Assembly (NCBI GenBank): GCA_964016885.1
Contig: OZ024742.1
Location: forward strand, 79,670,001 to 79,734,000
Reading direction: 5' to 3'
DNA from: Eledone cirrhosa
Lineage: Eukaryota
Length of the DNA stretch: 64,000 nt
A program made the position numbers and the translations under genes. The notes beneath the pieces are model-generated. The model did no database searches. It was not told the DNA's origin and saw only the letters and a list, made by a program, of their open reading frames with translations. Shown here one piece after another: positions 5,190-62,765 of the stretch. How positions within the stretch are numbered: position 1 is the first letter of the stretch; every line of letters starts with the position of its first letter.

Positions 5190-9375
<4,186 letters not shown>

Positions 9376-9379
<4 letters not shown>

Positions 9380-10519
9380 AGTTAACTTCCTGGATGTCAC
9401 ACTCAATTTAAACTCTGGTTTGATTAAACCGTCTCATAAATTGAATGAAAATCTCAAATACGTAAATGTTGGGTCTAACCACCCCATCTCTATAATTAAA
9501 TCTATCCCTAAAAATATTTCCCTTAGAATCTCGGGTCTATCTTCTAACATACAAGTATTTAAGGAACACGCCGAGTACTACGATAACGCCCTTAGTAAAG
9601 CAGGCTACCTCAACAAAATAGAGTACATAGATGGGAACAATCAAAACACCCAAAATAAATCCCACATAGGTAGATATAATAACACAACACCAAACCACAC
9701 TTACTACCATAGTATGCACACCAGTAAACCAACAAACAAAACTAATAGAAAGCGATGCAAAGAGTACTTATGGTATAACCCCGAATACAATAGTTCCATT
9801 AGTACAAATTTACCAGTACTCTTCTTTAAAATAATTAAAAGACATTTTCCTACATCACACAAATACCACAAAATCCTAAACCCTACCACTATAAGACTGT
9901 CATACTCTACAGCGTTAAACCTTGAACAACACATAAAAAAGATCAATACTAGAAGGTTAAACGAAAACACTAAAAACTTAAGTACAAAGAACACAAAAAA
10001 ACAGTAGACAATACACTACAGAACATAAATAAACCACACCTAAGTTCGTCCGCAATACTACTCCAGAGAAAACCCAACGTACACAACTGTAACTGCACCT
10101 ATCCTGACAACTGCCCCCTCGGCAATAACTGCCTGGAAAAAAATATTATTTATAAGTGTACCATTAAATCCGGAGGCAACGAGTGGTATTACGTGGGATC
10201 AACGGCAACATCGTTTAAATCTCGATTGTATAGGCATTCTTACTCAATAAAACACCAGAGCCAAAGAAATGTAACAACTTTAGCAGAAAAAGCTTGGACG
10301 CTCAGGGATAGCGATCAAAAGTTTACCCTAAAATGGGAGAAATTAGCTAAAACCCAAAGCTTTTCCAGGAGCCAAAATTTCTGCAAATTGTGTAATCTTG
10401 AGATTTATTACATAATCACACACAAGAAGAAACTGCTGAATAACAGAATTGAACGAACATTATTCTGCCGTCACAGAACTAAAACCCTTTTTTCCCACTA
10501 CAAGCCGAATATTACATAA
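9376..10519 (+). pseudogene. 5'-truncated Penelope-like (Naiad-type) retroelement ORF: RT C-terminus/thumb, Cys linker, GIY-YIG endonuclease
   Basis: NFLDVTL...[15 protein letters not shown] (PLE RT end), WYNP, CNCTYPDNCPLGNNC linker, IIYKC...YVGST..FKSR..H (GIY-YIG), CKLC..E, CRH. There is a stop/frameshift near 10005-10080. The ORF starts abruptly at (TA)n. Confidence 0.92.
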
Positions 10520-16426: not shown

Positions 16427-18407
16427 TCAATCTGGCTTTCGTGCTGGACGCGGCACTACTGATATGATCTTCTCAGCTAGACAGCTCCAGGAGAAGTGCA
16501 TGGAACAAGGCTTGGATCTGTATAGGTTTTTGTCGATCTGACAAAAGCTTTCGATACTGTTAACAGAGATGCATTATGGAAGGTTCTCCAGAAACTCGGT
16601 TGCCCTGATAAGTTCCTTGCTTTAGTTAGGTCTTTCCATGACGACATGAAGGCTTGGGTTAATGTCGGGGGTAACATGTCGGATCATATCTCAGTAAAAC
16701 ATGGAGTGAAACAGGGGGAAATTCCAGCACCGACCCAGTTTGCCATATACTTTGCAATGGTTTTCTGTATTGCATTCAGGAATTGCGAGCATGGTGTTTA
16801 CATCCGATATCGAACCTCAGGCAGCATATTTAACATCAGGCGCTTTGCTGCAAAGACAAAAATATTTACATCAATCATAAGAGACCTCTTGTATGCAGAT
16901 GATTGCGATCTTGTAGCGCACACAGAGAGTGATATGCAGCACATTTTGAATGCATTTTATGACGCTTGCACTGCCCTAGGTCTGACTGTCAGTCTCAAGA
17001 AAGCCGTCGTCATGTACCAACCTGCCCCTGATAAGGAGTACACTGAACCATACATCTATGTGTATTGCAAACGACTTGGAGTGGTTGATCAGTTTGTCTA
17101 CCTGGGAAGCACTGTCAATCGATACAACAACTTTGACAGTGAAATCTCACTTATGTTTAGGAAAGCAAGTGATGCTTTCGGAAAGCTCGAAAGGTGACTC
17201 TGGGGTCGGCGAGACATATGCAGGAGGACAAAGGTAAAGGTGTACAGGGCATGTGTGTTCTCTTGTCTTCTTTATGCCTGCGAGACCTGGGTCACATATC
17301 GACACCACCTTAAGCAATTGGAGCGTTTCCATCAGATGTGTCTCAGACAGATCCATGGCGTTCAATGGAGGGACCACATTAGTGATGTCGAGATTTTGGA
17401 AAGCTCTGTGTGTGTGACAGTATAGAAGCTTTTGCGCTTAAACAACGACTCCGTTGGAGTGGTCACCTTGCCAGGATGAAGGATTCTAGAATACCAAAAC
17501 AACTCTTTTATGGAGAGTTGGTTAAAGGAAAACGACCGCCACATAAACCAAAAAAGAGGTATAAGGATTCCTTGAAAGCCTCTTTGAAAGACGCTAACAT
17601 CTCTGGTGATACATGGGAGAATATTGCTGCTCATCGTAATAAATGGAGAAAGACTGTATATGAGGGAAAAGTTGTCTTTGAGGCATCTCGAATCGCATAC
17701 GAGAAAGTAAAGCGGGATGTGGGAAGAGCATTGCTGTTGCACTCCCATACGGCGAGGGTCCTCCTATGGTGCTGACATGCAGCGTCTATGCGAGACTCTG
17801 CCTAAGCAAAGCTGGACTCGAAAGTCATCTTCCCAGTCATAAAGTAAGGCCAGTGGTTGACTACCAGGCTGCTGTTGGAGATGCTACTCATCATGCTTGC
17901 CAAACATGTGGTAGAGAATGTAAATCAGCAGGAGGGCTCAAGCGACATGCAAGAGTACAAGAACTCCAACCACAGCCGACTATTCCCAGTAAATGTTTTG
18001 GTTGCTGACTCTGTGCAAGACATTTTAGATCATTGGCTGGGCTAAAAAGCCACATTCGATCGCAGCGCTGTTAGTTGCTATCGTGTGTGTGTGTAGATAT
18101 GCTTATGTGGGTGCGTGTGTGTGTATATATATATGTATATGTATATTATTATTGTTATTGTCGTTATTATTATTGTTGTTATTATTATTATTACTATTAT
18201 TATTGTTATTAATGTATGTATGTGTGTATATGTGTGTGTATGTGTGTGTGTGTGTATATATATGTATGTATATGTATATATATATATATTTTTTAATTTT
18301 TAATTTTTTTTTTTAATTTTTTTTTATTTTTATTTATTTATTATTATTATTTTTATTTTCTTTCTCCTCGTGCAATGGCCATACTCGATAACGAGGGGGC
18401 AGCCATC
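16427..18407 (+). pseudogene. 5'-truncated RTE-clade LINE: RT domain, C-terminal C2H2 fingers and 3' tail
   Basis: QSGFRAGRGTTDMIFSARQLQEKC, FVDLTKAFDTV, GVKQG, LLYADD, YLGS, LLYACETW, RLRWSGH..RM...RIPKQLFYGEL. Fingers include CQTCGRECKSAGGLKRH. The 3' end is ggccatactcgataacgagggggcagccatc(ATGT)n. Several stops and frameshifts. Confidence 0.93.
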
Positions 18408-19384: not shown

Positions 19385-20712
19385 TTAGATGCAACATTTT
19401 TGGAATGTTTTACATATTTTTACTGTTCCATTAATGGATTGTACTTGTAATTTCCTAACTAGTTGTGTTCTTTCTGTTCCTGTGAAGCCTAGCTTCTCAA
19501 GATTTGTATTGGGGCAGTTACTAACATATCCCAGTGCCCCAATAATCACAGGCATAAATCTGAAGGTGTAATCAGGGTGGAGTATCTGCAGATTTCTCAT
19601 CAGTTCTGCATAAATATTCTCCTTTTCACTAATCTTTGATATTATATTGGCATCTGCTGGGCAGCTAATTTCCACTACTGTGCATGTTTTCTTCTCCCTG
19701 TCCCATATCATAATATCTGGTCTGTTATGCCTGCATTTTATTGGGGTTTTTACTGGAACATTCCACCAGTACTCTTTCATATTATGTACATGGATGTCTT
19801 CCACATTATTGTAGCTTTTAATGTGTTTATTATCGGGGCTATCTTTTTTACGAACTGCATTGTACAGTGTTTTGGCCACTACATCATGCCTCATAGGTAG
19901 ATAGTACCGCGATGACATCTTTGGGCAGCTGCTGATGACATGGGTGATATTCTCGATGTTAGTTCTGCAGAGTCTGCACTTGTTATCACATCTAGGTGTT
20001 TTGCCTGCATCCCTAACTGTTTTGTGAATCAGGTATTTCGTGCTAATCTCCTGTTCTTGGATTGCAAAAGCGTATCCTTCAAAGTGGGAGCCAATATAGC
20101 GGTTGTTGGTCCAAGATAGACTAATTTCCTTATCTGTATTACTCTCACTTAGGAGCTTCCTGGCAACATATCCATGCATGATTTTTTGCTGATAGGTATG
20201 CAGTTTTTCATCCATGGATTCACTGCGATACTGCTGAGCGACATCCTTGGGTGTGATTTTTTGATTATCACACAGGGAATATGTCTCAAGGAGTTCCTTC
20301 CCAACTCTCATGATCTTATCTGTTTCATGCAGATAGACTTGCTCGAGAAGCGGACTCCTACGCTTCGAGGTTCGTAGATGTTGTCGGAGAGATATGATGC
20401 GACATTCAAATGTTGTCTGGACTGATGTTAGGCCTCTGCCTCCCTGCTTACGTTTCAAGTAAAGGCCGTCTATGTCACTGTTGATGTGGAAGTTTCCGGT
20501 GTTGTTCAGTATTTTTCGAGTTCCAACATCAACGGCTCGGATTTTATCTATCGTCCAATTGAGTATTCCAAACGTTGGTGTTAGGGCAGGCACAGAAAAC
20601 ATATTGTGAGCCACTGTTTTGTTTTGCGCAGTGAGTTCCGATGAACAGATCTTTCTTAATTGGGTGTAGTATTCCCTGATTACGCGTTCTTTATTACAGA
20701 TACCATTATAGG

Positions 20713-20715
<3 letters not shown>
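19385..20715 (-). mobile_element. 5'-truncated R4/Dong-like non-LTR retrotransposon (thumb, CCHC knuckle, RLE); open ORF at 19385-20614
   Basis: LYLKRKQGGRGL, AIQEQEI, CRLC...E...HVISSC, RHD, HNRPDIMIWD, VVEISCP, K...Y and PVIIGALG motifs. Abuts (ATGT)n. Confidence 0.9.
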
Positions 20716-20743
<28 letters not shown>

Positions 20744-20775
20744 TGTATGTATGTATGTATGTATGTATGTACGTA

Positions 20776-20806
<31 letters not shown>

Positions 20807-20837
20807 TGTATGTATGTATGTATATAAGTAAGTAACT

Positions 20838-21047
20838 ACTGATTCAGTTGTGACCGATGATGTTGATCATTTATTCTTTTCGTGTTATAGCTACTGTAGC
20901 TCGGAGAGTGGGATTGGCTTAGTGCACAGTCTTTCCTCACTTTAAAAAATATCTTCACGCACAGGCATTGCTCGATAGAATTAATTAAAAATTAATAATA
21001 ATGGTATATCGTGCAATGGCCATACTCGATAACGAGGGTGCAGCCAT
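20838..21047 (+). mobile_element. Truncated copy of a second RTE-derived subfamily
   Basis: Matches ~25250-25455 and ends ggccatactcgataacgagggtgcagccatc. Confidence 0.75.
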
Positions 21048-21569: not shown

Positions 21570-23490
21570 ATCTCTTTCTCTTAATTTCGAGTATATTTTT
21601 TGACCGGCCACCTTCCTGGTGGCAAGGTTGTAAAAGAAAAGAAATTGTCATCCCTTGAATCGCAAGAATGTTTTGCAAATTTTGAAGGTGCCAGCTATCG
21701 CAGCCATTTGTAGACTATGAATTAGGGAGCTGCGCTCTTTGTCCGCAAATCCAAGTTCAGTCATACTTTGGTCTAAGCGGGTTGGTATATAACCCGTAGC
21801 TCCAATAATGATGGGTATGAAGCTAAAGGTGTATCTTGGATACTGGATTTGTAAACTCCTCATCAATGGACCGTAGATGTCCTCCTTCTCCTGTATTTTC
21901 TGACAACGTTTACATCAAGTGGGCAGCTGATCTCCACAACAGAACACGTTTTCAATGTGTGGTCCCAAACAACAATATCAGGCCGGTTGTGCTTTAATTT
22001 GGTGGCAGTTTCTATTTTCAGGTCCCACCAGTATTCCTTAGTGCCATCTGTCTCAATATATTCTTCCTCGTTTGTTATTAATTTTGTTTTCCGAACTGCG
22101 TTTCAGATAGTTCTAGCTATCCCATCGTGTCTCATGGGGCGGTAGTAGCGAGATGACATTCTTTCGCAGCTGGCAACAATGTGGCTTACATCTTCGATCT
22201 TTGTTGTACATAGCCTACATTTATTGTCAGCTGATGGCTCTCCTCTTTTTTGCAGCAGATATTTGGTAGGGAGTTCTTGTTCCTGTATTGCATAGAGATA
22301 TCCCTCATGGTTTGATGTCATAAACTTGTCGGAACTCCATGCCAGGCTTTTTGAGTGGTTTATCCCGTCTATGGTCTGTGCTTTACATCTCAAGTATCCA
22401 TGCACAACTTTTTCTGTAAATAGGTCACTTCTTTCATCTTGTTTGAACATTGAATAGGATCTTCCGATTTCTCTGGGTGAGAGATTTATATCAGTCTTTA
22501 TTCCATATCTCTCCTCCAGATCAGTGGCTATCCTAATGATATTTTTTTTTCATGCTCATAAACCTGGGCAAGATGGTTGCCAACCTTTTCCCTCTGTTGA
22601 AGATGTTGCTTCAGTGTTACTATCCGGGTCTCATATGATGTTAATATGGATTTTAGACCACGGCCACCCTCCTTGCTTGAGAAGTATAGCCTATCCACAT
22701 CACCATTGATGTTAAAGTTCCCAGTAACACTGAGAAGTTTGCGAGTTCTAACATCCATCTCACTTAGTTCTTGCAATCACCAGTTTAGAAGGCCAAATGT
22801 AGGCCTTAGAATTGGCACCGCATAAGTATTGTGGGCAATGTATTTGTTGTACGCTGACAATTCTGATGACCATATTTTCTTTACTCCTCTGAGGTATTCA
22901 TTTCTGGTTCTCTCCTTATTTATGGGTCCATCATATCTGACATGCTCATCCTGTCCAAGATATCTGTAGTTGTCACCTGACTGTAGAGGTTGTATTGTCA
23001 GGCCGTTCATCTCTAGATTTCTATAGGAGGCCACAGCTCGTCCACGTTTTTCTGCCAAATATTTACACTTGGACTCACCAAATTTCATTTTGATGGCTGT
23101 TGAAAATTGTGTAATGAGATCCAATTGTTTCTTGATGTTATTGATATTTGGCCCATACAACTTCAGGTCATCAACAAAGAAAAGATGGGAGATACTTCTG
23201 GACCCACTTATTTGTCCACCTTGTTTCCTGAGTAGGTAAGATAGTGGATTTAGTGAGAGATTGAATAGTAGCACTGACAAGCTTTCACCCTGAAAGATGC
23301 CGTGCTGGTAATGTATCTTATCAGTCTTGACTTGCTCCTTCTCACCTATAAGGATCACATTGGTGTACCAGTTCTTGGTCAGACGTTCAACAGCAGCTAC
23401 CAGTGGTTGTGGGACTTTGGCTAACTGTAAAGCCTTAACAATTCATCCATGAGGTACACTATCAAATGCTTTTTGATAGTCCAGCCATGT
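21570..23490 (-). pseudogene. R4/Dong-like RLE retrotransposon with RT core, disrupted
   Basis: HGIFQGESLSVLLF, SHLFFVDDLKLY, YRYLG, EGGRGL, AIQEQE, CRLC and RPD motifs, with multiple stops and frameshifts. Confidence 0.9.
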
Positions 23491-28729: not shown

Positions 28730-31379
28730 GATTTTTTAGTAAGTAAGTTAAGTTTATAATTTTCTTAATTTACGTCTCTCATATTATTGTTCTGCAACCC
28801 CATGCATTGAACCACATTGTTAATAAGACAAAACCTATATATTTGCTAGCATTGATGTGCATCTGTGTGTATATAAATGTTACTAGATATAAATTCCTTA
28901 TATATATATATATATATATATATTATTTACGTAGACACTTGAGGGTATGTGTATAAACGCGTTTGCACCGTGTCGTATTAGTGACAGTATTGTATTAGCT
29001 CAACGTCCAAGAACATAGCCGTTATATGTAAAAGAAATCAAAGAACGCCTACATACACATACATTTTTTATTTACTGACAATGTTTCATCCATACCATTG
29101 GGCAGGAATCACCAGAGCTTTATAAACAAAAATACAGTACTGAGTATAAGCTCTACCATGCTTAGTCACATGAACATTATATATACAGTACAGGATAATA
29201 AGAGGGAGATCGGAAATGGAAAGGATGGAGAGAATGCGTAATGGGGTTGTTATTCAACATGAGGATATAGGCAGATTTTCTCACAAGAGGCGGAAGCACG
29301 TGAGGTCACACAGAAACAAATAAAGCATTTAACGATAGTAAAAAATATAATGATAATAAAGGAAAAGAAAAATAATAATATAAAAAGCCAGAGGAAGTTA
29401 TGCATTGGTCACTATATAGAGCAGGTGATTTAGTGTTCCATGACTTACAGTAATAGAAATACTAAGAGGCCCCTAAGGTACGTTCAGGATGTCCAAAGGG
29501 GATTGTGTTCCTCCCCATAGTATACATAATCAGGGTATACTAGTAGGTTACGGAATTACGTTCACCAGGGATGCTAAACCTGCACATAGACAGTCACCAC
29601 ATCAATACAAAGCGGGGTTAATGCATGATAAAGCTGAAGCAAATAATTCACAACACATATGGTTTAGTCCCTGTAAAAGACACATCTGGCGAGGAGTCAC
29701 AACATATGTAATTCCCCGTAAAAGTCAATCGATTCGATTTCATATGCCCCGATTAGCGAGGAGTTATAATATAAGTAGATCGTCCGTAGATGGTAATCCA
29801 GTCTAGAACTTACAACATATGTAGATCATCCGTAAAGTGTAATCCAGTCGCATTCATATGCTCACCAAAACATATCATCACATATAGTAACATGTGTTAC
29901 AGGCTGATGTTACACATCAAAAATCCTCACATGTTTAAAATCCCAGACCGCGATGTGCTATATGTCCAAGATGCAGCACCAAATTCCGTATAGCCAAATT
30001 CGTCACACCCAATCCAGCCGCGAGTGCGTCCAAATAATGCCAGGTTAAATGCAGCAGTGGTTCCCCGTTGACCAAACGTAGATTATCAATCAATACAACA
30101 CAGAAAATAACACAAAGTGCTCAAATCAGTAAATCCACCAGGCACCTCAGTATGTCCATTAGGTGAGGTCACACCCATACAGGCATACAATAATCATATA
30201 AGATATTTCACGTACACCGCAATAATCCCGGAACTCAACTCCGCAAAATATAAACATAGTCGCTACACAGTTCGTTCCAACTGCGATAGGTATATATACA
30301 CCAATTCATGACGTAGAAGGCACATACGGGTGTTACTCTATTCAGTCACCAAATAATGACGTTTCAATGGCAGAGAAAGGGGGACTACTTTGTCATGTCG
30401 TCTATGAGGCTATTTAATTCGAATTTAATTCAAATATAATCACCAACTGAATTATCACACTGAACCAATAAGATTCGTACAAATAAAGTCTATATTATTA
30501 TTATTGGACCTCCAGAGTTGTCAAGTGGGTCATACCAAAGACTATTAAATCGCGGTTAACGTAGGAAATGTCAATAAGCCGAAGATTAACTTTATTAATT
30601 CTATTATGGGGAAGTGTTTATACAGGGTCGGGTTCAAATAGATAGTATTATATATAGGTGCTACGGTAAAGGAAACTCTATTTAATCTCAAGCTCCAAGT
30701 ACGGTGTCCCTTACCCCGGCAGGAGTCGCATCTATTGACAAGTATGGGGAGCGGGAAGTGTACGCATGTCCCGCAGCAGGAACGGTCTATCAATGGAACC
30801 AGATACGCACATATGTGTCTGTGGGACCAAGCCATATGGGGCGAGTAGTTGAGTTACCTTCCGCATAATAGCTATGGGCTGTTATACTCGATATAGTACC
30901 ATCCGCCATCAAGGGGAGAACATTCTTGGGACGCTACGCTATCCATCATGGACCAAAAACTCAACAAATTAAATTTTGAATCCCTGACCCAAACGGGGGC
31001 AAGGCATACATACACTCACCAGTAACCCTCGAGTTGGGGGCTGATGGGTTGTGTTACTACCCAACCGCGGTGGCAATAGGGAAGCCACGAAGTGGAGGTC
31101 ACATGGGGGTCACCCCTGGGAACTTAGACGTCCGTACAGTAGGCTGGGTCACCGGAAACCAACCGATTGTTAAGAAACACACAAATGCAATGGAACAAAA
31201 TGCCCCATTGTCATTCAAAACTACATACTAAGGGTGGTCCACAGGAGGAAGCAAATTGGTTAAGGAAATAGGATTAAGGAGGCGGGAAGTTGAAAGAGTG
31301 CTACAGGGTTATTGAAGAGGGAGGAGTGATATCTCGGCGGATCTAGGTAATTGGCTTAAAGTGGTAAAAGGAACTAAGG

Positions 31380-31990
31380 TTCATGTGTATACAAGAAGAA
31401 AATATTTCTGATTTCCTATTGAGCAGGTTACATCTAGAGTATATTATGGCATGAGAGTCTAGAAGGCACATGTTACAAGTTTTGCTCGGGTGGCATTAGG
31501 GCGTAGATTTAGTCACCAATCTCTAATTAAGGGTATAATCAATACTACCATTTATAAAAAAATAAATATATTTAGCCAGGGAAGTGGTATTCCTGAGCCT
31601 ATCGTCTCTAAATGTATATTTGTGGTAGTTGTATCAAGTCTTAAATGAGGTAGAAGTAGATCCCACTTATGTTTTAGTGGAGGTTGCCGTTACAACATCA
31701 CATGCATAAACTATGTTTCTCATGAGGCAATTGCTCTTCAAAGGGCAATTTTCTCTCGGTCTACAATTACAATTTCGGTGTGAGTTGCTGTTCGTGTCTT
31801 GGGAGGGCTGGTTGGTAATACTTTCCCGATATGATATTTGTTCTTCCGAGGTTGTTGCTGCCACCATCAGGCAACTCATTTCCCAATGTGTTAGGTTGTT
31901 GGTGGTTATTTACAGATTTGATGGTGTCGAACCCTACTCTAATTTTCATATTATTAGTGCGTGTTAGGTGGTAGGCGAAGTTTTGGGTAG
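31380..31990 (-). pseudogene. PLE Cys linker + GIY-YIG endonuclease remnant
   Basis: CNCRPRENCPLKSNC..NIVYAC....*VGSTSTSFK, TSLAKY and KTCNMC motifs, with stops and frameshifts. Confidence 0.85.
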
Positions 31991-45808: not shown

Positions 45809-45867
<59 letters not shown>

Positions 45868-45892
45868 TGTAATAAACAACATAAGGCAATTA

Positions 45893-45952
45893 TTCCATTT
45901 ACCAGTGGTTTCTTAAAAGCAAAAGATTTTGCTTTCAATCCTCAGAATGAAA
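45893..45952 (-). ncRNA. Type-I hammerhead ribozyme
   Basis: Reverse complement reads tttcatt CTGAGGA ttgaaagcaaaa-tc-ttttgcttttaa GAAACC act GGTA aatggaa. Confidence 0.88.
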
Positions 45953-46123
45953 AAATCCTGGTCTGTTTATTGAATTTGGATTTTAAATAAAAAATGCAAT
46001 CTATATGAATGTGAGGCTGGAGTAGGAAGAAGGAAAGGAAAAATAAAATAAAACTACACATGCAAACACACACACAAAAACACGCACACTCACGCACAAA
46101 AGCATACATACACACACACACAC

Positions 46124-46154
<31 letters not shown>

Positions 46155-46383
46155 CATATACATATACATACACTCATACATACACACACACACATATATA
46201 CACACATATATGTGTATATAAATACACACAAACGCATACATATACACATATATACACACGCACATAAATATCAACACATCCATACATACACATACATATA
46301 TACAACCAGACACACATATATACACAAATACATACACATAGAAATAGTAATATAAATACATATACATACACACATATACATAC

Positions 46384-46417
<34 letters not shown>

Positions 46418-47150
46418 ATATGTGTACAAGCATACACATACACAAACATAGCCATACACACATATATATACATATATACATACATGCACTCAATCATACA
46501 CATATACACACGTACATACATACACATACATAAATGCACTCCTCTACATATTCACACACGCAAATAAATATAAGAAACAATATAAGAAAAAATATATATT
46601 AAAAAAAAAAATTTTGACAGCATTACAAACGGCAGGTAACTGGACAGACACGCGTGGTAAGTAATACACACAAATGCACGTATACATACGTACGAAATAG
46701 TAAATACATACACACACTCTCACACATAAATATACATATACGAATACATAAACACATACATACACATACACAAATACATGCACAAACACGCACACGTATA
46801 CAATTATACACACACATATACACACACATATGTATATGTAATTATATACACATAGATACATATATATATATACATAAATATAAAAATACACACACACACA
46901 TATATGTATACATACACACACACATATACATACATAGCTATACAATTATGCACATACAAATACGTACATATCATAAACACGCACAACCAAATACAAACAC
47001 ACACACACATACATATATATATACATACACATACATACACATATACATGTGTGTGTGCGTAAAACTCAGTCTTAGATAATTCATATGAACCTTACATATA
47101 CATATATATAGTAGTAAAGTAATAAAGTAATAAGCAACATAAGGCAATTA

Positions 47151-47210
47151 TTCCATTCACCAGTGGTTTCTTAAAAGCAAAACATGTTTCCTTCAATCTT
47201 CAGAATGAAA
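47151..47210 (-). ncRNA. Hammerhead copy with a GUG triplet (probably inactive)
   Basis: Reverse complement reads CTGAAGA...GAAACC act GGTG aatggaa, which violates the NUH rule. Confidence 0.7.
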
Positions 47211-47252
47211 AAAACCTGGTCTATCTACATATACATACATATACACACACAA

Positions 47253-47371
<119 letters not shown>

Positions 47372-47536
47372 AATATACATACACATACACACAGGTATGT
47401 GAAGGGCAAGGCAAAAAGAATATATGGGGGTGGGGGGTGGGGACATAGGAAAAGGTGAAATATATATATACAAGAGTACAGAACGTAGATTCAGCAAAAT
47501 AAAAACCGTAGCAGAAGTAAAGAGCAGAGGAGGAGT

Positions 47537-48340
47537 TCAAGGCGGTTGATTTATCATAGCAGTGTCAATCCAGTTACAGATCAGATGCGATTTCAGATGA
47601 GGACAGCATCTGAAGATCTCAGTCTTTGAGTTAAGGCAAGCGGAAGTGGCTCTCAAGTTTAGCAAAATCCTATACTTTTCTGTGGTACACAAAGAACAAT
47701 TCTTCGTGCCCCTTTGGTACTCCCTCGAATGGTCTAATATAGACCAATCAATAGAGTACGGGATGTTACTATCCTTGAGTTCCCACACCTTACTTGCGAG
47801 GGCCGTTGATGTTCGTTTATCGGAGTGCTTAAAAGAAGCGACATGTGAGTAAAATCTGGTTTTAAACCTGTACTGGGTCATACCGACATATCGCTCACTC
47901 CTGGCTGGCTGGTTGTTGATTACCGGTGTTATCTTAGCCTCATATACAACAGATTTGGTGTTACATATACCCTGCAATGGGCATTCATCTGGCTTCCTGC
48001 AACTGCATCCTGGATTTATTCTCGTATGGTTTGAACTGGTGATTTTGGACTTCATAGATGGGCAACAAGAGTAGCTGATCTTAACTACGTTCCTATTAAA
48101 TATCTTATAATATCTATAATTAGGAGAAATAAGGGTCTAAGAGTTCAAGAAATTTCCTTCCTACATTAGTTTTGACAGTTAGAGAGAAGGGGGTGTGAAC
48201 CAAATAATCTTCCTTTTCCTGTTATTGTGGTTAGTTTTAGGGGGGGGGGAGTAGGTAAATAAGAATTTTTTTCTGTAAAACCGCTGTTCTTAAGGGCTTT
48301 ATTAAAAATGTCTATAGACGAAGATAAGGTAGAAATCCTA
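47537..48340 (-). pseudogene. PLE (Naiad-type) thumb end, Cys linker and GIY-YIG endonuclease; open ORF at 47537-48055
   Basis: CSCRKPDECPLQGIC..SVVYEA...YVGMT..FKTRFYSH, STALASKVW, CSLCTTEK and CCPH motifs. Upstream frameshifted IIWFTPP and KISYSCCP. Confidence 0.92.
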
Positions 48341-48514
48341 CGGTGTGTGTGTGTGTATGTATGCTTTTGTGTGTGAGTGTGCGTGTTTTAGTGTGTGTGT
48401 TTGCATATGTAGTTTTATTTTATTTTTCCTTTCCTTCTTCCTTCTCCAGCCTCCATTTCATATAGATTGCATTTTTGTTTTTAAAATCCAAATTCAATAA
48501 ACAGACCAGGATTT

Positions 48515-48574
48515 TTTCATTCTGAGGATTGAAAGCAAAATCATTTGCTTTTAAGAAACCACTGGTAAATGGAA
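48515..48574 (+). ncRNA. Type-I hammerhead ribozyme (inverted pLTR)
   Basis: tttcatt CTGAGGA ttgaaagcaaa...tttgcttttaa GAAACC act GGTA aatggaa. Confidence 0.88.
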
Positions 48575-48666
48575 TAATTGCCTTATGTTGTTTATTACAT
48601 AACTATTAAGCTCTGTTACCTACATAGAGCACTCTTTTTTCCTGGACTTTTCCGACGGAATTACTT

Positions 48667-48723
<57 letters not shown>

Positions 48724-54451: not shown

Positions 54452-57632
<3,181 letters not shown>

Positions 57633-57849
57633 ATTAAGTTAAAGTGTACATCTACATATGTATACGGAAGTATTAGTATGCATATAAATACACACATGTA
57701 TACATATGTACATGTACTGAACCTTTCACTAGACACTTTACAGTGAGTGTCAGCTAGTCTGTATGTAACCACACAGACGGACCGGGTTTTAGAGTCATAC
57801 GAGTTTTCAAGGAAACACATTTCCTCTATTCTCCAGAGAGCCAGACAGG

Positions 57850-57894
57850 AATATTGGACTAGTTTCGATGTTATTACATCTCATCAGCAATATT
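57850..57894 (-). ncRNA. Canonical minimal type-I hammerhead ribozyme
   Basis: Reverse complement reads aatattg CTGATGA gatgt-aata-acatc GAAAC ta GTC caatatt. Confidence 0.93.
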
Positions 57895-58318
57895 TACCCA
57901 TCTTCCGGCTTCTCTGGAGAATTGTAAAAGCACATATCGTTATATGCTTTTTCTATGAAAATTAGTAGTGGGTAGACTAATTTGCATAGAACGTGAGTCA
58001 TTGTACGCACCGGTTCAGCGGAAACGATAAAAACAAATAACGAAACGAAATTAAATTTCGTTTCGTTTCTAACTCACTTTTGTATGACTGACGCTTAAAC
58101 AATTAAGTTAAAGTGTACATCTACATATGTATACGGAAGTATTAGTATGCATATAAATACACACATGTATACATATGTACATGTACTGAGCCTTTCACTA
58201 GACACTTTACAGCGAGTGTCAGCTAGTCTGTATGTAACCACACAGACGGACCGGGTTTTAGAGTCATACGAGTTTTCAAGGAAACACATTTCCTCTATTC
58301 TCCAGAGGGCCAGACAGG

Positions 58319-58363
58319 AATATTGGACTAGTTTCGATGTTATTACATCTCATCAGCAATATT
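58319..58363 (-). ncRNA. Canonical minimal type-I hammerhead ribozyme
   Basis: Identical to 57850-57894. Confidence 0.93.
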
Positions 58364-59055
58364 TACCCATCTTCCGGCTTCTCTGGAGAATTGTAAAAGC
58401 ACATATCGTTATATGCTTTTTCTATGAAAATTAGTAGTGGGTAGACTAATTTGCATAGAACGTGAGTCATTGTACGCACCGGTTCAGCGGAAACGATAAA
58501 AACAAATAACGAAACGAAATTAAATTTCGTTTCGCTTCTAACTCACTTTTGTATGACTGACGCTTAAACAATTAAGTTAAAGTGTACATCTACATATGTA
58601 TACGGAAGTATTAGTATGCATATAAATACACACATGTATACATATGTACATGTACTGAGCCTTTCACTAGACACTTTACAGTGAGTGTCAGCTAGTCTGT
58701 ATGTAACCACACAGACGGACCGGGTTTTAGAGTCATACGAGTTTTCAAGGAAACACATTTCCTCTATTCTCCAGAGGGCCAGACAGGAATATTGGACTAG
58801 TTTCGATGTTATTACATCCAATCAGCAATATTTACCCATATTCCGGCTTCTCTGGAGAATTGTAAAAGCACATATCGTTATATGCTTTTTCTATGAAAAT
58901 TAGTAGTGGGTAGACTAATTTGCATAGAACGTGAGTCATTGTACGCACCGGTTCAGCGGTTATTTGTTTTTATCGTTTCCACTACTAATTTTCATAGAAA
59001 AAGCATATAACGATATGTGCTTTTACAATTCCCCAGAGAAGCCGGAAGATGGGTA

Positions 59056-59100
59056 AATATTGCTGATGAGATGTAATAACATCGAAACTAGTCCAATATT
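59056..59100 (+). ncRNA. Canonical minimal type-I hammerhead ribozyme
   Basis: aatattg CTGATGA gatgtaataacatc GAAAC ta GTC caatatt. Confidence 0.93.
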
Positions 59101-59416
59101 CCTGTCTGGCCCTCTGGAGAATAGAGGAAATGTGTTTCCTTGAAAACTCGTATGACTCTAAAACCCGGTTCGTGTGTGTGGTTACATACAAACTAGCTGA
59201 CACTCACTGTAAAGTGTCTAGTGAAAGGCTCAGTACATGTACATATGTATACATGTGTGTATTTATATGCATACTAATACTTCCGTATACATATGTAGAT
59301 GTACACTTTAACTTAATTGTTTAAGCGTCAGTCATACAAAAGTGAGTTAGAAGCGAAACGAAATTTAATTTCGTTTCGTTATTTGTTTTTATATATATAT
59401 ATATATATATATATAG

Positions 59417-62454: not shown

Positions 62455-62765
62455 TTCATAATGTCATAATTGTTTCTACTTTTGGCACAAGGCCATCAAT
62501 TCTCAGTGCATTACTGGTACTTTATTTTATCGACGCCGTAAGGATTAAAGGCAAAGTTAACCTCGGCGGGATGTCATAATTGTTTCTACTTTAGGCACAA
62601 GGCCAGCAATTACCCAGTGCGTTACTGGTACTTTATTTTATCGACCCCGTAAGGATGAAAGGCAAAGTCAACCTCGGCGGGATTTGAACACAGATCGTAA
62701 AGGGACGTAACTATGCTGGAAAGCATGGCGTCCGACCCTCCACCGCCCTATCCTCGGCGGGATGT
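62455..62765 (-). mobile_element. Octopus-like tRNA-derived SINE with an internal ~111-bp duplication
   Basis: ctggtactttattttatcgac(g/c)ccgtaaggat.aaaggcaaagt.aacctcggcggga occurs twice; the reverse complement has the B box GTTCAAATC. The family assignment is from recall of octopus SINE sequences, not from a search. Confidence 0.7.

Follow-up and report, generated by a model that had tools for sequence, protein, structure and literature searches.

A tandem hammerhead repeat of Eledone cirrhosa with the insertion footprint of Penelope-like elements

A 64,000-nt stretch of Eledone cirrhosa DNA (assembly GCA_964016885.1, contig OZ024742.1, positions 79,670,001 to 79,734,000 of the forward strand; hereafter the window) contains a short array of 469-bp units with hammerhead ribozyme motifs, set between (TA)n tracts. 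The question raised by this locus is what kind of element the array represents, which enzyme placed it there and which form of RNA served as the template. The explanation that we prefer, with some reserve, is a young insertion of a non-coding hammerhead repeat (an animal non-LTR retrozyme) copied by the RT-endonuclease of a Penelope-like element (PLE), probably from a circular monomer. That a PLE mobilised this retrozyme we regard as very likely, and that most insertions had a circular template as moderately likely.

Anatomy of the element and its ribozymes

The element occupies positions 57632-59392 of the window and has (TA)n microsatellites as its left (55945..57631) and right (59393..59415) target flanks, as identified by TRF and from the sequence. 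An earlier note on this DNA had placed it at 57633..59392, of which the right edge stands and the left edge is corrected to 57632. It is made up of two arms whose ribozyme sense points outward and whose truncated 5' ends are joined centrally. Arm A (57632..58959, minus strand) holds 2.83 tandem units (TRF: period 469, 2.8 copies, 99% matches at 57632-58959) and bears out the near-identical 469-bp tandem of the earlier note; units 1 and 2 differ at 4/469 positions, and the units of the array are set apart from one another by private changes. Arm B (58979..59392, plus strand) runs through unit positions 130-469 (0.73 unit) and then into a 74-nt tail (59319..59392, plus strand) with a 13-bp perfect hairpin inside. 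The outer end of arm A, 57632, is one fixed end of the family (end A, unit position 469), and that of arm B, 59392, is the other (end B). The arms are joined by a 19-nt templated filler (58960..58978, plus strand), a short inverted piece of the unit's tail region. By analogy with the in vitro work on PLE RNA (Frangieh et al. 2024, PMC11167929, as far as the accessible text describes it), the 74-nt tail may be a binding or priming region. No credible protein coding and no RT or GIY-YIG ORF was found within the element: ATG ORFs are only 64-95 aa long, as expected from the earlier statement that there is no real ORF, and a 284-aa frame was rejected as a gene because it is mere read-through into (TA)n.

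The type I hammerhead of this element reads AATATTG CTGATGA GATGT-aata-ACATC GAAA CTAG TC/CAATATT. By motif scan, two intact copies with a GUC site were located on the minus strand, at 57850..57894 (core start 57887, predicted cut after 57857) and 58319..58363 (core start 58356, predicted cut after 58326), just as the earlier note had them. A third minus-strand copy, at 58788..58832, has the core CTGATTG that had also been reported; its changes sit at 58819-58820 and are private to this third unit. The intact GUC copy on the plus strand (59056..59100, core start 59063, predicted cut after 59093) is inverted relative to the minus-strand ones. It had been recorded simply as an inverted copy and proves to belong to the second arm of the same insertion. 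At gathering score, Rfam gave zero matches in the 64-kb window. Below gathering, Hammerhead_HH9 matched exactly the three intact copies (31.8-32.4 bits with a cut-off of 52, E about 1e-5), and the mutated hammerhead had no such match even at this level. Rfam miRNA matches, also below cut-off, were rejected as inverted arms and TA-rich hairpins.

The scissile C17 of the intact minus-strand ribozymes is predicted from the motif to lie at 58326 and 57857. Positions 58319 and 57850, between which the earlier note had predicted release of a monomer, are the 3' ends of stem I; its length of exactly 469 nt still follows arithmetically from two intact minus-strand ribozymes (58325 to 57857). This cut-to-cut monomer (57857..58325, minus strand) is predicted to adopt a branched fold closed by an extended stem I, with an MFE of -161.9 kcal/mol (z -10.8 vs shuffles). 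Stem III consists of 2 bp round a 2-nt loop, and its ACUAGU is self-complementary, forming a 6-bp duplex of -6.2 kcal/mol. Because of this palindrome, cleavage would likely require two ribozymes acting as a dimer. According to the available text of PMC6765202, PLE hammerheads of this shape cut as dimers, slowly, and the dimeric minimal hammerheads of PLEs and newt satellite 2 are likewise of type I with a very short palindromic stem III; like them, the retrozyme is predicted to cut as a dimer. Release and circularisation of a 469-nt monomer are predictions only. The loci that we fetched from the assembly also contain numerous unrelated hammerheads of type I whose stem III loops are palindromes (TATATA, TGCGCA, CCACTGG, CTAG), and the Eledone cirrhosa genome is dense in PLE-type ribozymes.

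An older-subfamily relative lies inside (TA)n at 6069..6859 (previously given as 6071-6861). It is 87% identical and has a GUU site, in agreement with the diverged GUU copy described before, and comprises a minus arm with a tail ending at B (6069) and a short plus arm ending near A (6859). Its single hammerhead is at 6366-6410 on the minus strand (core start 6403, motif scan). The stem II covariation that had been claimed from this relative comes down to one pair (A-U to U-A; GATGT/ACATC vs GTTGT/ACAAC), and stronger stem covariation comes from sister families. Elsewhere in the window, non-LTR retrotransposon ORF fragments are found at 16526-17775 (plus strand), 19385-20866 (minus strand) and 22103-23442 (minus strand), with RVT_1 matches in two of them, and a short interspersed repeat that was seen in other loci too is present at 62461-62683 as a tandem pair of 111-bp copies.

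Family ends and the link to Penelope-like elements

The assembly searched comprises 3.0 Gb in many contigs. The exact ribozyme pattern had 8,758 matches in it, while reversed-pattern controls had 0, so that the genome copy number, which the earlier note had proposed as a check, is that of a dispersed repeat and not of a lone satellite. A further search of the assembly gave 386 matches in the 39 places scored of 603 candidates. Loci were taken from the best matches of that search (37 loci, from the 39/603 scored) and from the first ribozyme-pattern matches (20 loci); the best-match loci are biased towards young copies with at least one full unit each. This gave 43 young-family elements, the window copy included and two matches left out (L062, a stray 49-nt match, and L063, a palindromic self-match). 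None of the 43 has an LTR layout.

Two arms are present in 30/43 elements, and a second arm was undetected in 13/43. The ends are highly regular: 28/30 two-armed elements end at A and B, that is, at unit position 469 (plus 0-4 shared bases) and at position 74, and these two fixed ends are 74 nt apart. The exceptions are one element with two B ends and mirrored flanks and one ending at 123. Older subfamilies (85-90% identity, including the copy at 6069-6859) keep both ends, and arms reach 14 units and more. The 31 arm junctions, counting the L063 artefact, comprise 19 with an overlap of 1-4 nt, one blunt junction and 11 with short inserts. Most flanks are (TA)n, in which a target duplication is unreadable, but duplications of 11-14 bp can be made out at L047 and L031. 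At L044, paralogous PLE copies supply the empty site and reveal a clean single-arm insertion with no target duplication. Mirror-image flanks round a centre were observed at L036 (3246-4348, two B ends), L043 and L133, possibly as a result of fold-back rearrangement or as an assembly artefact.

Animal non-LTR retrozymes are recognised by dispersal, mobility and a target duplication of more than 4 bp, all of which were found here where visible, and by at least two consecutive intact type I hammerheads in tandem units, which the family also has. By this sequence-level definition the family is an animal non-LTR retrozyme, and both the kind and its link to PLEs have already been published. Under L1-style twin priming, the stop of one arm should coincide with the start of the other. 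This mechanism was rejected as the origin of the two arms, the inner ends being uniformly distributed (KS p 0.61; six of the ends, assigned to position 1, reflect segmentation artefacts in part).

Craig et al. 2021 (PMC8557442, available text) list as PLE traits partial tandems, truncated copies in inverted orientation and a tail on one side. The family shows this footprint, with a partial tandem, an inverted truncated arm, a one-sided tail and an AT-rich target. The earlier note had overlooked both the palindromic stem III and this standard PLE insertion footprint with its two fixed ends. In the in vitro experiments described in the accessible part of PMC11167929, PLE protein cuts and extends both strands, and priming at two adjacent internal sites defines the tail. 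A young coding PLE of the same genome (2,051 candidates, of which 40 were scored and are about 100% identical) has RT and C-terminal GIY-YIG motifs in its P0001, by reading of the sequence; Pfam gave no match for PLE fragments or P0001. At L246 and L247 this coding PLE has two arms in (TA)n, one with a short end and one about 90 nt longer, and both of its ends lie downstream of its own hammerhead. Because of the in vitro data and the same layout in the coding PLE, ends A and B are best read as two putative RT start sites.

An autonomous PLE sharing the pLTR, which the earlier note had suggested looking for, did not turn up among the fetched loci: no coding PLE in them, a sample of the PLE families of this genome, shares the unit sequence. 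Comparison of the unit with 30 loci of one coding PLE family by blastn gave only short TA-rich matches, and ORF scans round 20, 60 and 20 ribozyme loci gave only nested, unrelated elements. Among the matches listed, 3' UTRs behind endonuclease matches lead into the unit at L044 alone, and L044 was rejected as a PLE/retrozyme fusion, because the retrozyme has inserted there into a coding PLE's 3' UTR. At L243:6499-9950 (G000:C1510), a single chimeric insertion has one arm ending in the coding PLE short end and another in which PLE body runs into a 420-nt stretch of retrozyme that ends at A. This junction occurs once in the genome, and a chimeric family was therefore rejected; template switch and target-site deletion explain the locus equally well.

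Coding PLE fragments are also seen in the window itself. One, at 45860-48690, is two-armed, with a GIY-YIG ORF at 47537-48136 (minus strand) and hammerheads at 45945 (minus strand) and 48522 (plus strand); its endonuclease has 63,791 first-look candidates genome-wide. Further 5'-truncated fragments (RT C-terminus, GIY-YIG-like) are located at 9376-10519 (plus strand), beginning inside a (TA)n tract, and at 31352-31774 (minus strand).

Ribozyme conservation and the template question

The ribozyme core is intact in 8,628/8,733 units genome-wide, and core change (0.17% per site) is close to within-locus decay (0.26%). In the fetched loci, 5/177 units have a core change and 0/32 multi-ribozyme loci are wholly dead, a count of low power in a family so young. 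Sister retrozyme families (L134:1135-2080, L222, L163, L216, L221) are about 60-70% like the 469-bp family. They share its ribozyme palindrome, their fixed ends match, and an internal (TA)n makes their units differ in length (427-548 bp); one of these families has 13,718 pattern matches. Since the search pattern that yielded most of them demands the core, part of their core conservation follows from how they were gathered. Double-sided changes were found in 7/16 ribozyme pairs over 11 sequences (which are related, so that no probability is given) and in 21/81 consensus fold pairs, and in three families the predicted fold of the monomer has a z between -8.8 and -10.8. Selection on hammerhead structure is supported, and the pattern matches, covariation and kept core together uphold this part of the earlier note along with the retrozyme-like identity that it proposed; its interpretation as a whole is partly supported.

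Variants shared between arms bear most directly on the template. The same 5-site haplotype is present in both arms at 26/26 loci (chance 0.20 each), and only 3/975 unit-site cells disagree with their own locus. L039 has 11 identical segments, L142 has 20 segments across both arms with one stray difference, and single-locus variants are fixed in both arms at L059, L147, L128b and L034a. The template was not linear cut RNA, because inner arm ends are unenriched at the cut (2/73 within 5 nt vs 1.7 expected) and 0/180 units have an indel there. Non-fixed variants common to both arms of one locus number 5, vs 0.54 expected from cross-locus recurrence, and 21/179 non-fixed variants recur within an arm. 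At L049, one variant occupies units two and three, counted from the outside, in both arms, and at L222:2040-7065, in a sister family, two unit types alternate in both arms, possibly from a dimer template or as a higher-order repeat. A pure monomer circle cannot produce the patterns at L049 and L222, and the inter-arm shared variants require multi-unit templates (linear or dimer circles) or post-insertion conversion. Periodic variant patterns at L040, L141 and L143-L144 represent local duplication, so array length alone is no proof of rolling-circle copying. In published experiments, as given in the accessible texts, ribozyme-dead PLE RNA equalled the wild type in insertion in vitro, with no read ends at the cut (PMC11167929), and 8/9 Xenopus dimers remained uncleaved in vitro (Li, Clavereau and Pollet 2026, bioRxiv 10.64898/2026.07.22.740005). 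Our haplotype, inner-end, core and covariation data favour cleavage, circularisation and rolling-circle reverse transcription.

In the sequence of events that we propose, a tandem would be transcribed, neighbouring ribozymes would pair via the ACUAGU palindrome and then cut, and the 469-nt monomer would be closed by a host ligase. PLE protein would nick both target strands and prime at two internal sites, corresponding to ends A and B. Each cDNA would then travel round the template for a variable length, the cDNA ends would be joined through 1-4 nt microhomology or short filler, and long arrays would be reshuffled afterwards by local duplication and conversion.

The same element and PLE enzyme might instead have used an uncut linear multimer from a source array, with both arms primed near one unit junction, long arrays arising by local tandem expansion and the ribozyme serving RNA ends, expression or export. 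We consider this rather unlikely. The variant order that matches between the L049 arms, the alternation in both L222 arms, the excess of inter-arm shared variants (5 vs 0.54) and the local duplication seen in the periodic patterns of L040, L141 and L143-L144 speak for an uncut multimer, as does the dominance of unprocessed RNA as substrate in vitro (PMC11167929, accessible text). However, the 9-19 near-identical units over both arms of L039 and L142 demand equally long homogeneous sources, against which stands the 5' truncation that shortens every copy, and the locus-private variants fixed in both arms demand a one-unit bottleneck. Cleavage would also destroy such a template and an uncut-template model would reward ribozyme loss, yet no spread of a core-dead subfamily was seen.

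Work on R2 and L1 leads one to expect that template jumps leave scars or stops. Tandem formation from a cut linear monomer, by repeated RT jumps from 5' end to 3' end of the template, might account for one haplotype per locus and for the need of a ribozyme without ligation, but both the 0/180 units with an indel at the cut and the arm starts, unenriched there, run against it, and we regard it as improbable. Still lower do we rate a passive satellite or orphan pLTR shaped by unequal crossing-over only, or an assembly artefact, a reading that is largely refuted: local duplications in long arms and the mirrored flanks at one locus (L036) would fit it, whereas the loci are dispersed over many contigs, share their fixed ends and have locus-specific haplotypes, target duplications and an empty site are on record, and the units of the window array differ by private changes. 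Returning to a circular template, we put forward tentatively, at somewhat less than even confidence, a reading that joins these observations. A PLE dimer, acting at both nicked target strands, would prime one ribozyme-made circle at two points 74 nt apart, giving rolling-circle arms of independent length; occasional dimer circles would yield alternating arrays, selection would act on the whole 469-nt fold beyond the ribozyme, no helper homology would be needed and L243 would name a candidate helper.

Comparison with known elements and significance

Like animal non-LTR retrozymes (Cervera and de la Pena 2020, PMC7229834; bioRxiv 10.64898/2026.07.22.740005), the family is built of non-coding tandem repeats, each a few hundred bp long and with its own type I hammerhead. 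According to the available texts of these two sources, tandem type I hammerhead repeats are expressed as circles, and PLEs as helpers and rolling copies as the mechanism have been proposed. The unit of 469 nt is slightly above the 150-450 bp of the retrozymes in PMC7229834 and within the 51-972 bp of those in the preprint. The words 'inverted' and 'Octopus' are absent from the accessible text of PMC7229834, and two-armed insertions with two fixed ends are not described in that of the preprint. In Xenopus, 24/57 retrozyme families match known repeats, nearly all of them PLEs (preprint, available text), whereas no related coding PLE was found here among the fetched loci. Searches of an open-access library turned up no paper on hammerhead retrozymes of the host group.

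PLEs with a pLTR (PMC8557442, PMC11167929, both as represented in their accessible parts) are alike in their partial tandems, inverted arm, one-ended tail and AT-rich or (TA)n targets, and in a ribozyme that lies upstream of both internal RT start sites, which are putative in the retrozyme; the same sources report non-autonomous Chlamys elements inserted as several copies head to tail. The retrozyme differs from these PLEs in that it is without an ORF and has arms of up to 14 units and more. Its tail measures 74 nt; tails of 30-40 nt are quoted for published PLEs, and that of the coding PLE found here is about 90 nt long.

The function of the PLE hammerhead has been called unclear (PMC8557442), and the ribozyme was dispensable in vitro (PMC11167929; both statements from the available text). 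Thousands of very young copies are present in the Eledone cirrhosa genome, and their ends, junctions and haplotypes bear on circle copying and on the purpose of the PLE hammerhead. The statistics on haplotypes and junctions open the circle question to direct test, and since the genome offers a young coding PLE alongside a compact 469-nt template whose putative priming sites have been mapped, direct reconstitution would be possible.
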